IMG/VR virus record: IMGVR_UViG_3300013121_000046
Length of the DNA stretch: 64,000 nucleotides
DNA from: a virus
Lineage: Duplodnaviria > Caudoviricetes
Strand: one strand, 5' to 3'
Position 1 is the stretch's first letter, and each line of letters opens with the position of its first letter. Position numbers and translations under genes: made by a program. This document shows positions 9,308-57,045 of this stretch, one piece after another. The notes below the pieces were generated by a model that worked only from the letters and a program-made list of their open reading frames with translations, was not told the DNA's origin and ran no database searches.

Positions 9308-9449
9308 CCATCCTCCCAGCTAGTTTATTTAGCTGAGTACATAGATACTACCTCTGAGGGGGGGGTAACATCCCGGGCCCTTCGGCTATACAGATATACC
9401 CTAAAATAGTCGGAGAGGCGTCTAGATAATACCAGAAATAGGTATACGC

Positions 9450-13257: not shown

Positions 13258-13272
13258 TGTATACCCTAAAAA
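13258..13272 (-). promoter_or_regulatory. TTTT-N-GGGTATA promoter-like motif heading the small-gene array
   Basis: TTTTTTAGGGTATACA on minus strand, immediately after a terminator. Confidence 0.55.
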
Positions 13273-13313
13273 ATAAAGGCAGTCCCCCACAATTCAGGGG
13301 GACTGCCTTTATT
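13272..13313 (-). terminator. intrinsic terminator
   Basis: 17-bp perfect inverted repeat AATAAAGGCAGTCCCCC/GGGGGACTGCCTTTATT followed by T run on minus strand. Confidence 0.85.
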
Positions 13314-16010: not shown

Positions 16011-16165
16011 TTAATGAACCCCCAAGTTTGTGACCAAAGTTTGAATTCTCCCCGTTAAGGTGCTATACCCCAAAATAAACCTGGTTTGAAGAAGCTTTGT
16101 CAAAAATCCATAGGAATCACTAACACCTTTTTCAAAGATACGTATTTAGGCAACTCACAACTATA

Positions 16166-17059: not shown

Positions 17060-17120
17060 ATTTTCCCTTTAACGCAACGACTACCCCGGATTAAGAATCG
17101 CCCCTATATACTGTATACCC

Positions 17121-17177
17121 AAAAAAAATCCCCACCAGGTTTCAAACTCCTAGAAGAGTCCTAAACCTGGTGGGGAT
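17121..17177 (-). terminator. intrinsic terminator-like hairpin
   Basis: 15-bp arms ATCCCCACCAGGTTT/AAACCTGGTGGGGAT plus T8 on minus strand. Confidence 0.8.
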
Positions 17178-17179
17178 CA

Positions 17180-17867
17180 AAAAAAGAATGGGCGGCTTTA
17201 GTTGGTTAGTCCGCCCGAGGGTGAAGTACTCCTTTCGGGAGTACCCTACACCGGTGTTTCAAGCCGTTCACCCTCTTGGTCCCTGTTATTGGATTTTAGG
17301 TCCGGGTAACAGCACCCAATTCAGGTTGGTCGCTTCTGACCTTAAACAATCGAAGCCGCTAAACTCCATTGCCATTAGTCAGGTGTCTTTTGCTTCGGGG
17401 GGAAGCGTCCAACACCTCTCTTTCGAGACTCTGCCTGACCTTTCGACCTGACAGATTAGACCCCTTCACAACTCAACCTGTGTACTTTGCCGTAGTAAAC
17501 GGCTTCCCCCAAACTACTATTTAGTATATAGTAATGGAGATTTCAAGTCTCCTCGTCAACCTAAACGCTCGATAAGTACAAATCCGAACGTCCCATAGCA
17601 GAATTCCCTAATTGACGTTAGGTATCTTGCACAGGGCTAACAGCAGGTTATACTCGCGTCACCGAGATTTACCCTGCACCGTAAGCAATCTTGTAAGAGT
17701 GGCTTAACACCCAACCCTTCGTTTCGGGGCTGTCCAAGATTCAGGCTTTACTCTATCCCCTCTAGGAGGGGCAACTTGGGTAGGTTGTTCCCAAAGTCGT
17801 TTTTTCGCCCGAGCACTAGGGGCGATTGGGAAGCATCCAAACTCTTTCGAGTATTGTCTGCTTCCCA
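17180..17867 (-). ncRNA. large highly structured non-coding RNA (~690 nt), GOLLD/ROOL-like size and context, family unassigned
   Basis: Own promoter motif at 17874-17887, terminal hairpin + U run, about 20 stems, several GAAA tetraloops, loop-loop complementarities; no credible ORF. Confidence 0.75.
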
Positions 17868-17873
17868 TGAACT

Positions 17874-17887
17874 AGTATACCCCAAAA
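17874..17887 (-). promoter_or_regulatory. TTTTGGGGTATACT promoter-like motif
   Basis: -10-like TATACT ~7 nt upstream of the first hairpin of the large RNA. Confidence 0.65.
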
Positions 17888-17926
17888 GATCACCTCCGTA
17901 GACCAAAAAAGGCCGAAAATTTTTTA

Positions 17927-22366: not shown

Positions 22367-22594
22367 ACTATGATATACCCCAAAAATTTTATCTGGGACC
22401 TTTTTTCCCTTTCCAAGTTTTTGTACCCTTCGGATAACTACAAACCGGCTTCTTCTTTACTCCGATACTCTGTTGAACCAACAATCGCTGATAAATTAGG
22501 GCACCTAACTTTGGACCTAAAAGACTGCTCATTGCAAAACCTTACCCGAGAGGTAGTTAAGTCACTATACCCCTTGGTAAACACCTAATCAAAC

Positions 22595-25278: not shown

Positions 25279-25521
25279 TATGTGGGTTAACTCCGTTACC
25301 TCCCAAGAAGACTCTGCTACAGGTATCGGTAACTGTGGCTCCCGCTCCTTCCCACACCTCTCCCAAAAGCAACTCCAGGTTAACTATCTTTTCCGGTGCC
25401 GGAAAATCTTTAATTTCCCAGTATACACCGGAAAAAACTACTATCTTTGCCGACACCTGGATACCCCTCGTTCGCGTCCCCCATTTTATTCTTCCTGTCG
25501 CTGTCTATTTCTATTTTTCAG

Positions 25522-25879
25522 TGGAGGTGGCGGGAGTCGAACCCGCGTCTTGAAATAGTATCAATACTTGGCGTCTACGTGTGTGTCTCTGGGTCTATTT
25601 TCATTCTGGGTAGTGGGGCTCAGAGCGAAGCCGCCACTACCCCTATCTGGCTGTATCTCGACCCCCTAAAGTGCCAGCATACGGGGGATCACACCGAATT
25701 TAGCAACCAATTTTTGAACCCCTTCGGTTGGAGTCCGCAATTGGGACCGCCCAATCACTTAGGCAGCCAGAGCAAAAGTCTCAGCATCTGACGTTTGGTC
25801 GGCTTTTTACGTGGCCCGCTGACCAACCACGACACGCAACCAAATACTCTCACTATTCAATCGAAACCATTTCACCCCC
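25522..25879 (-). ncRNA. ssrA: tmRNA (one-piece), tag (A)AETFALAA
   Basis: 5' GGGGGTGAAATGGTTTCGA; 3' GACGCGGGTTCGACTCCCGCCACCTCCA with G3.U70 pair; tag ORF GCT GAG ACT TTT GCT CTG GCT GCC TAA at 25785-25759. Confidence 0.95.
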
Positions 25880-31210: not shown

Positions 31211-31240
31211 AGGGGAAATCTCCGGCAAAAACCTATAAAG

Positions 31241-31313
31241 AGCTAACGGAGGGACTTGAACCCACAACCTACTGATTACAAATCAGTCGCTCTGCCAATT
31301 GAGCTACGCTAGC
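31241..31313 (-). tRNA. trnT: tRNA-Thr(TGT)
   Basis: GCTAGCG acceptor, ACTGA-TTTGTAA-TCAGT anticodon arm, GGTTCAAGTCC. Confidence 0.93.
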
Positions 31314-31379
31314 TTTAATTTTTCTCAGCGGGGTAACTACCCCAAGGGCAGACTGGCTGCTCCATCTGACGTGCCACAA

Positions 31380-31515
31380 TATCTTTTACATATCGGTACC
31401 CTACCCCATTCTTATGGGATATCTGCGAACCCCGATTCAATCATCTCCACCCGCCGGGCTTCTCGGACAATTGTAACAGGATTCTAGGCAAGTATCGCTT
31501 AGTATTCACAACAGA
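31380..31515 (-). ncRNA. candidate small structured RNA, copy B
   Basis: Shares TACTTGCC...AGAAGCCCGGCGGGTGGAGA core with copy A. Confidence 0.45.
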
Positions 31516-31595
31516 AAATTTATACAGTAGGTTGTTTTGCTAATCCATAAACACTACCCTCCTTATATCATCGACCAAACATTACCTCTAGATAC

Positions 31596-31629
31596 GAAAA
31601 CAGCCTGGTATAAACACCAGGCTGTTTTC
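31596..31629 (-). terminator. terminator-like hairpin between the two RNA copies
   Basis: 14-bp perfect arms GAAAACAGCCTGGT/ACCAGGCTGTTTTC. Confidence 0.75.
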
Positions 31630-31684
31630 AATGGTTTCATACTACCATCACGAACACTAACACTAACATTTAATTAATTTTTAT

Positions 31685-31818
31685 GTAACACTCCACCGGT
31701 CTCGGCCAGTCTCCACCCGCCGGGCTTCTTAGACCTTTCTACTCCGGTGTCCTTGTCTCGTGGCCCTCGATTCCAAGGGCGAGAGACTCGGCAAGTACCA
31801 TACGCTAAGACCTGGCAT
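31685..31818 (-). ncRNA. candidate small structured RNA, copy A
   Basis: Outer stem GCCAG.GTCTT/GAGACTGGC, inner TACTTGCC/GGCGGGTG, hairpin GTCTC..GCCCT/AGGGC..GAGAC, loop CACCGG pairs with downstream CCGGTG. Confidence 0.5.
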
Positions 31819-31937
31819 AATCACTCTAGCACGAAATTAGGCTTGCCTGAGAGTCAAAAAGTCGGCAAGTTACCCACATAGGAAGCTGTATATAACAGAC
31901 CTCGCTTAAAGTGGCCCCCTACTGGGTAACTTTAACC

Positions 31938-32285
31938 TTACTTCTCGTCAAACAGCTTGGCCCACTGAGTTAGAGCCGTCCGGGCGAAACTCACCGAACC
32001 AACCTCCCGGACGAAATTTCGAGCCGCCGTCAAGTGCAGCAACGACACCGCACCCTCTGTCGCATCCGCTGGCACAGCCAAGACCTGAACCTTCTTGGTC
32101 CGACGCCGCTTCAGCTTCGACTTCGCCAGGCACCGAATCTGCGAGACGTACGTCGGAGTGACCCCCAAATCCTTCAAGGCTTCCGCCACCTCCTTCGGAG
32201 TCGCCTTCGGATTCTGAGTCAAATACTCCCGAATCGCCTGCGAACGATTCGCCTTTTCCGTCTCCCGCACTTCCTTCGTAGCCAT
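31938..32285 (-). CDS. small basic DNA-binding protein of a type common in Planctomycetota
   Basis: NRSQAIREYLTQNPKATPKEVAEAL..GVTPTYVSQIR, basic linker, C-term L.AA..FV..VG....A..AL; GC-rich. Confidence 0.75.
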   Translation of the reverse strand: MATKEVRETEKANRSQAIREYLTQNPKATPKEVAEALKDLGVTPTYVSQIRCLAKSKLKRRRTKKVQVLAVPADATEGAVSLLHLTAARNFVREVGSVSFARTALTQWAKLFDEK

Positions 32286-32491
32286 TCCTATCTCCCAAAA
32301 AGTTTGACCTACTCGGGTACCAAGAGTACCGTACTCTCTATTTAAGCCAGAACTAGACTAGACGATTTTAACCTCACGTATCGTCTAGTTCTGTATCCCC
32401 TAAGTTGGTCGGTTGATACACTAGTATACCCGAAAAAAATTCCTTTTAACCCATAAGTAGAAAAATTTTTCAAATTACCCCAAAGGGGGGG

Positions 32492-56796: not shown

Positions 56797-57045
56797 GATA
56801 TCTTCCCTCCTATCCTGTTGGAGAATTTTTCTGCTAGGTTAATATACCCCAAAAATGTTTCTTCTGGTACCCCCTACCTAAAATTTTCTCTAGTTTTGGG
56901 TTGAATGACTAGATTCATCCCCCCCACTACTTGGGGGTGGATATATTGGATGGATAGCTGCGTCGTTGTCTCGCAGCCGGAGCAAAAAATCAAAAAGCAT
57001 CCTACCCATTTCCACATATCAAATCCTTTTTCGAGTCAAAGCTTC

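Follow-up and report, generated by a model that had tools for sequence, protein, structure and literature searches.

In this study, which was based on a 64-kb window (the whole stretch of DNA that was analysed, a part of the 236-kb contig of a large phage), two copies of an exactly duplicated 20-mer were found to form one common long hairpin with a kink-turn-like tip. The common hairpin and its tip are new compared with the first-pass annotation, which had proposed a duplicated, unassigned ncRNA or ribozyme family; what stands of that proposal is a duplicated, structured minus-strand ncRNA that matches no Rfam family, while neither the ribozyme nor the term family could be upheld. The two units probably represent a real, duplicated, strand-specific structured RNA module, the kink-turn tip of which would be self-folding. 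We lean, though not strongly, towards reading them as paralogous copies of one minus-strand RNA module with a kink-turn tip, for which we infer a leader or recognition role.

A Common Hairpin in Both Copies

The region that holds both copies contains no credible ORF, as had been noted before (none longer than 62 aa in 31314-31937). The exact duplication of the 20-mer AGAAGCCCGGCGGGUGGAGA, on the minus strand only, was confirmed (Table 1), and a search at up to 3 mismatches gave 2 matches in 64 kb compared with 0 expected. Around the 20-mer, the block common to both copies reaches 32 nt at 84% identity. A second common block, TACTTGCCNAG, also written UACUUGCCNAG, lies at 31797-31787 in copy A and at 31494-31484 in copy B, and its spacing to the first block varies (62 nt in copy A compared with 25 nt in copy B). 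In both copies, the 20-mer is preceded, just as the first-pass annotation had it, by AGCG.. and the 8-mer UACUUGCC, and a local alignment added two further upstream boxes common to the copies, GUGAWUA and CUWAGCG. The previously described complementarity of the 8-mer to GGCGGGUG inside the 20-mer is complete and includes three G.U pairs, because of which the 8-bp pairing is possible on the minus strand only. Merely 0.9% of the 8-mers of the window pair as fully with the block (p=0.009).

An ungapped alignment of the two copies, anchored on the 20-mer and spanning 64 columns, showed that the flanks differ in sequence and yet pair in the same register. In this alignment, 82% of the cells pair, compared with 18-50% when the partners were slid by 1-3 columns, and five pairs are changed on both sides, a covariation that rests on a single pair because there are two sequences from one genome. 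Column shuffling never reproduced the ten stacked pairs that the copies have in common on one diagonal (0 of 20,000 shuffles), and the same kind of shuffle gave p=0.003 for a run of six common pairs. The distance from stem Ia to the tip is equal in both copies with zero indels. RNAalifold, which was given the alignment alone, returned stems Ia and Ib, a 4-bp tip stem GCCC/GGGU with a GGC triloop and an asymmetric 6/3 internal loop. Moreover, the flanks close the hairpin around the block better than 98% of the shuffles for each copy (p=0.019 and p=0.013). The hairpin of copy B folds on the minus strand only (-16.2 compared with -6.0 kcal/mol), which makes a double-stranded DNA site or a plus-strand RNA unlikely. 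It is the minimum-free-energy fold of copy B, and that of copy A as well if folding is started at the 8-mer; the folding z-scores of the whole units are modest (-0.55 to -1.8). That both copies share an in-register, covarying long hairpin is thus supported.

The nested P1/P2 fold that had been drawn for the copies did not survive this comparison, since its energy is close to that of the hairpin fold in copy A (-50.4 compared with -47.0 kcal/mol) and 10 kcal/mol worse in copy B (-17.6 compared with -27.3 kcal/mol). Two further proposals of the first-pass annotation held in part. The outer stems exist in both copies, but their positions are not equivalent between them, and the one of copy B competes with a better helix. 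The loop-to-3' pairing CACCGG/CCGGUG of copy A is real, whereas in copy B the pairing that corresponds to it in register is GAAUCCUG/CGGGGUUC and not UUACA/UGUAA. It is worth mentioning that copy A has a near-repeat, GGAGACUGGCC / GAGACCGGUGGAG (31698-31735, minus strand), from which the kink-turn can be drawn in an alternative way (GGUC ... GA GACC) and the outer stem gains a second partner; no counterpart of this near-repeat is present in copy B.

Taken as a whole, each copy would be a long irregular hairpin that is built of P0, a junction (with an extra hairpin in copy A), Ia, a symmetric internal loop, Ib and the tip. P0 would stack under Ia, which would give a three-way junction with the extra hairpin at 31755-31787 in copy A and just a 3-nt bulge in copy B.

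Table 1. Positions of the two RNA units, their parts and the neighbouring elements in the window.
Feature	Position	Strand	Remarks
tRNA-Thr(UGU)	31240..31313	minus	110 nt downstream of copy B
Copy A, module	31686..31824	minus	Boxes GUGAUUA and CUUAGCG, b1, optional hairpin P3, long hairpin Ia-Ib, kink-turn tip, 3' strand of P0
Copy A, b1 (8-mer UACUUGCC)	31790..31797	minus	Can pair with GGCGGGUG of the tip (P2) or with the P0 strand
Copy A, P0	31686..31693 (3' strand)	minus	b1 and the 3 nt before it, UGGUACUU, with GAGUGUUA; predicted basal helix
Copy A, P3	31755..31787	minus	Copy A only; GUCUC...GAGAC around GCCCUUG/CGAGGGC; between b1 and Ia
Copy A, long hairpin	31694..31749	minus	Encloses the kink-turn tip
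Copy A, stem Ia	31749-31744 with 31699-31694	minus	CACCGG with CCGGUG; followed by an 8x8 internal loop
Copy A, C-stem Ib	31735-31732 with 31711-31708	minus	GGUC with GACU
Copy A, 20-mer	31710..31729	minus	With the two preceding bases gives the bulge U-A-A and the tip pairs
Copy B, module	31418..31510	minus	Boxes GUGAAUA and CUAAGCG, b1, hairpin Ia-Ib, kink-turn tip, 3' strand of P0; no P3
Copy B, b1 (8-mer UACUUGCC)	31487..31494	minus	Can pair with the tip (P2) or with the P0 strand
Copy B, P0	31418..31426 (3' strand)	minus	GAUACUUGC with GCAGAUAUC; one mismatch
Copy B, long hairpin	31427..31484	minus	Folds on the minus strand only
Copy B, stem Ia	31484-31477 with 31434-31427	minus	GAAUCCUG with CGGGGUUC; followed by a 3x3 internal loop
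Copy B, C-stem Ib	31473-31466 with 31445-31438	minus	CAAUUGUC with GAUGAUUG
Copy B, 20-mer	31444..31463	minus	Identical kink-turn tip, bulge C-G-A
Intrinsic-terminator-like hairpin	31596..31629	minus	U-rich tail; about 85 AU-rich nt after copy A; dG -25.2, z -5.45
Hairpin S0	31867..31932	minus	Just past the stop codon of the HTH gene; followed by GCCGAC and a U5 run; dG -29.8, z -3.0

Features of the Invariant Tip

A kink-turn is a duplex with a three-nucleotide bulge, a C-helix on its 5' side and tandem G:A/A:G pairs following (PMC8191799). In both copies, the Watson-Crick stem Ib covaries and ends, after its last C:G pair, at a bulge of three nucleotides (U-A-A in copy A and C-G-A in copy B). 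The bulge is followed in both by G-A opposite G-A, i.e., the tandem G1b:A1n and A2b:G2n, for which sequence compatibility only was established and the sheared pairing is predicted. The tip continues with A:G at 3b:3n, G:U at 4b:4n, a CCC/GGG stem of three C:G pairs and a GGC triloop. Read from the sequence according to the rules and Table 1 of PMC8191799, the tip has C:G at -1b:-1n, G at 3n and G:U at 4b:4n, all of which favour the folding of a kink-turn in magnesium alone (PMC8191799). The invariant tip therefore reads as a standard kink-turn that should be able to fold in Mg2+ without protein. A loose kink-turn pattern is common by chance, with 21 matches in the window compared with 17.7 in the shuffles, and the assignment gains weight only because the tip is placed at the end of a covarying stem and is invariant. 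Kink-turns usually bind proteins or mediate tertiary contacts (PMC4316175). In Mg2+ or together with a protein of the L7Ae type, a kink-turn adopts a tight kink of about 50 degrees. No protein of the L7Ae family (PF01248) was detected among the 90 small ORFs of the window.

Pairing Alternatives and Transcription

The invariant 8-mer has two possible partners, the invariant tip, with which it can form an 8-bp helix, and the sequence directly 3' of Ia (P0). Pairing with the variable 3' flank would close the hairpin, while pairing with the invariant 3' strand and the loop of the tip would unfold the stem of the kink-turn. In the case of copy B, a linker of 2 nt leads to the base of a 19-layer hairpin, and on geometric grounds the two pairings should not be able to coexist. 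Since the 8-mer of copy B would be unable to reach the tip in cis, either the pairings are alternatives or the tip pairing takes place between molecules. Within the window, other targets of the invariant tip were found at chance level only. A separate observation concerns 17201-17250 (minus strand) in the ORF-free stretch 17180-17867, where GUACUUCACCCUCGGGCGG could form 14 bp with the tip, interrupted by one bulge (-26.4 kcal/mol, which is in the chance range across the window); it starts like the 8-mer (UACUU).

The strong terminator-like hairpin that separates the copies and the further long hairpin S0, both of which had been pointed out earlier, were borne out by their folding energies (Table 1). 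With a terminator of its own, copy A has the look of an independent small RNA. Downstream of copy B lie further hairpins, tRNA-Thr and three protein genes without a promoter motif of their own, and copy B looks like the leader of the tRNA-Thr transcript. Between the terminator and copy B lies a mini-ORF of two codons, AUG GAU UAG (31540-31562, minus strand), with a perfect AAGGAGG 8 nt before it. S0 is probably the terminator of the HTH gene because GCCGAC and the U5 run follow it. It also carries a third, partial AAGCG...UAACUUGCCGA, and the complementary GGCAAG occurs 16 nt downstream (31836-31866); S0 could be the degenerate remainder of a third unit, although the statistics do not support this, and it was rejected as a full third copy because its local alignment to copy A is not significant.

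Strong occurrences of a recurrent promoter-like motif, TTTTnGGGTATAnT, precede the HTH gene (32440) and tRNA-Phe; at the latter, the motif ends 6 nt before the mature 5' end. Written as (A/T)TTTTTnGGGTATAnT, it has 33 matches at up to 3 mismatches compared with 9.4 expected, and it lies on the coding strand; sites on the minus strand are 32423-32440, 22372-22389, 56841-56858, 17874-17891, 13258-13275, 17112-17129, 9393-9410 and 16062-16079. No phage-type promoter was detected between 32440 and tRNA-Thr, the best position-weight-matrix score in 31314-31960 being about 3 compared with more than 16 at real sites, and a sigma-70 scan gave no minus-strand promoter upstream of either copy. Both copies are preceded by weak candidates for extended -10 elements, TGCTAGAGT and TGTATAAAT; the starts and ends of the transcripts are predicted.

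In the favoured reading, the module would be a 5'-proximal recognition or architecture element of two untranslated transcripts, of which one would be a short RNA ended by the terminator at 31596-31629 and the other a precursor with tRNA-Thr and probably three genes behind it. The kink-turn would present the tip to a partner, i.e., a protein, another RNA or the 8-mer of a second molecule, and this partner would act on processing, stability or read-through.

Occurrence and Phage Background

No Rfam 15 family matched either copy when the 851-nt region and each copy alone (141 nt and 106 nt) were searched at the gathering thresholds and at E<=10; the families covered include drum, RAGATH-18, GOLLD, ROOL, riboswitches, HDV-like, pistol and hatchet. 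The matches obtained in the region were tRNA-Thr and weak, terminator-driven ones to GibS and ncr1015 at 31592-31693. Exact and gapped patterns gave only chance coding matches in IMG/VR, 41 matches in the JGI metagenomes, all of which were coding, and 5 chance matches in 185,579 species genomes. The pattern matches were GC-rich coding sequences (EARRVE-type peptide) or unrelated hairpins, and one low-GC match (L063) did not have the other blocks. A covariance model (R1) revealed no third copy in the window, only weak GC-rich matches in 156 Planctomycetota genomes and no copy beside the Planctomycetota homologues of the HTH gene. These scans consisted of exact patterns and a genome sample and can miss distant relatives. 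As homologues outside this genome were not found, two paralogues make up the whole of the evidence, and the module would so far be unique to an orphan phage.

The minus strand carries all long ORFs of the window, which has a steady GC skew. Besides tRNA-Val, tRNA-Phe, tRNA-Pro and tRNA-Thr, the window encodes a tmRNA, which is located just downstream of tRNA-Pro (25521-25879, minus strand, 130 bits, tag AETFALAA), as well as RecA, a Dda-like helicase, glycosyltransferases and a methylase. Among its 90 small ORFs, Pfam matches were obtained for two cold-shock-domain proteins, a Cpn10 co-chaperonin, an M28 peptidase and an NMN-transporter-like protein. Downstream of the RNA pair, the products of the 287-aa and 1159-aa genes are both singletons in a set of 5.8 billion proteins. 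No relatives of the HTH, 287-aa and helicase proteins were found in IMG/VR, and RecA is at most 33% identical to that of any INPHARED phage. The phage appears to belong to an orphan lineage without a close relative. Directly upstream of the RNA pair lies the gene of a 115-aa HTH protein (31938-32285, minus strand) that resembles Planctomycetota proteins. Homologues that are 33-43% identical were found in 7 of 401 Planctomycetota genomes, often in multiple copies and up to 8 per genome, and the family is possibly mobile or paralogous. Such a protein is a clue to the host, and the phage lineage is probably one of Planctomycetota.

Discussion

The rival explanations are weighed here from the more to the less probable. 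Intermolecular pairing of the tip with the 8-mer, either of copy A RNA with the leader of copy B or in a homo-oligomer, is unlikely; under this reading, the tRNA-Thr precursor would be the trans target of the short RNA of copy A, or else the RNAs would multimerize. The 8-bp complementarity is improbable by chance, copy B should not be able to form the tip pairing in cis with the full hairpin, judging by its 2-nt linker, and copy A has the appearance of a free-standing small RNA with a terminator. However, the tip pairing must melt the kink-turn's own stem, and the window holds no other target above chance complementarity. It is quite unlikely that the units are riboswitch-like aptamers, in which, as in SAM-I, the kink-turn would build a ligand pocket by bending the hairpin; switching would then occur between the two pairings of the 8-mer. 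About 30 invariant nucleotides, variable stems, an optional hairpin insert in one copy and the two alternative partners of the 8-mer would suit an aptamer, and kink-turns are architectural in at least seven riboswitch classes (PMC4316175). Against this, neither copy has an adjacent expression platform, since the terminator is located about 85 nt past copy A and a tRNA instead of an ORF follows copy B; moreover, no Rfam riboswitch scores, and no gene association hints at a ligand.

A site that acts at the DNA level, with the 20-bp block as an operator or recombination site, e.g., for the adjacent HTH protein, would account for the exact 20-bp identity, the core of which is a 9-bp palindrome, CCCGGCGGG, and for the small HTH protein gene directly upstream. 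This reading is very unlikely because the flanking stems show in-register covariation and depend on G.U pairs and the hairpin of copy B is absent on the plus strand. In addition, the second conserved block stands at a variable distance (25 compared with 62 nt), both sites are downstream of the HTH gene and not at a promoter, and no copy was found with the RNA model beside the bacterial homologues of this gene. A self-cleaving ribozyme, twister-like or of a new class, that would trim the 5' ends of two transcripts would fit an invariant core between variable stems with an optional stem, and ribozymes often occur in pairs in phage DNA, which counts in its favour. ACUUGCC, AAGCCCGG and GUGGAG, in which the first-pass annotation had seen an echo of twister, resemble, as we presume, segments of one rice twister. 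The echo could nevertheless not be substantiated: the twister, twister-sister, pistol, hatchet, hammerhead and HDV-like models were all silent at E<=10 when either copy was searched alone, and the defining twister geometry is absent (PMC5408937), which together exclude a twister identity. The kink-turn hairpin also explains the invariant block better, and terminator-followed motifs similar to copy A did not cleave when tested (PMC5737381); the probability of a ribozyme is accordingly very low indeed. Least likely of all, with a very low probability, is a decaying tandem duplication without present function. The occurrence of just two adjacent copies in an orphan genome, with no homologues outside it, is what decay would leave, but the flanks are near-random while 20 of 20 and 8 of 8 bases are identical, 58 nt are free of indels, and the stems have changed in a compensatory manner.

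The reading as two paralogous copies of one RNA module with a kink-turn tip can be extended, tentatively and with more doubt than confidence, to a broader habit of large phages. The pair would then be an instance of kink-turn RNA modules placed inside or beside tRNA genes, with one common kink-turn-reading partner that acts on tRNA precursors or on the host's tRNA-directed defence or processing enzymes, here with the 8-mer as a built-in switch. The case is limited by itself to two copies in one genome. If the fold and the expression are confirmed, it would be a compact new RNA module on a self-folding kink-turn, together with a sequence that is able to undo it, and hence a simple natural RNA switch or docking site in a barely known phage lineage. 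It would also add a data point to a question that has been asked since T4 species 1 and 2, i.e., what role small stable RNAs play in phage tRNA clusters.

Species 1 and 2 of T4 (rnaC and rnaD) are small stable ncRNAs that are encoded beside the T4 tRNA genes and are probably co-transcribed and processed together with them. The likeness to the present pair consists in an ncRNA encoded next to a phage tRNA gene, a relation in sequence is not expected, and to our knowledge they are neither paralogues nor carriers of kink-turns. Paralogous cis-acting RNA sites within one phage are represented by nutL/nutR of lambda and putL/putR of HK022. As in our case, these are two related RNA elements upstream of terminators, with a conserved linear part and a hairpin with a conserved loop; however, the copies have no similarity to boxA/boxB or put, their hairpin is much longer and kink-turn-tipped, and no N-like protein was identified. 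An antitermination role by analogy would be pure conjecture. Several other candidates were rejected: a tRNA remnant, as only a 7-mer is common with tRNA-Thr; a retron msr and a TnpB reRNA, with no reverse transcriptase and no TnpB nearby; a T-box, which had no model match; and an HDV-like fold, in which the strand order differs.

In twister (twister-P1/P3/P5), P2 has 4 bp, the terminal loop L4 of a short P4 forms two pseudoknots, T1 with L1 and T2 with a conserved GC of L2, and cleavage takes place at a U-A site of J1-2 (PMC5408937). The likeness to it lies in the three short segments and in an optional stem after GCC. In contrast, the helix of b1 is a continuous 8 bp where twister has the 4-bp P2 plus T2, and the copies have no short P4 with an 8-nt L4 in common, no T1 partner (GAGA and not GAGGG) and no U-A site. 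[quoted passage not shown] (2017; PMC5737381) combine, like copy A, an intricate conserved core that lies outside the 5' UTRs of protein genes with an intrinsic terminator behind it. Those RNAs form wide families in which many members are known and a protein gene is associated, whereas here two copies were found in one phage and no associated protein was identified. A further difference is that, behind copy B, a fused tRNA precursor takes the place of the terminator.

The kink-turns Kt-7 of H. marismortui, of the 5' stem-loop of U4 snRNA, of drum and of RAGATH-18 show the same order as the tip, i.e., C-stem, 3-nt bulge, G:A, A:G, non-canonical stem, small loop and back. In the case of drum, the kink-turn of which folds well in Mg2+, the key positions are identical (C:G at -1b:-1n, A:G at 3b:3n and G:U at 4b:4n; PMC8191799). 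Unlike drum and RAGATH-18, the module has no sequence or model match to those or to other Rfam families. Compared with known kink-turn hairpins, the whole tip of the candidate kink-turn including the stem and the triloop is invariant here and an upstream 8-mer is complementary to it. The nearest known systems are kink-turn hairpins as a motif and the orphan RNAs with a conserved core plus terminator as a kind.
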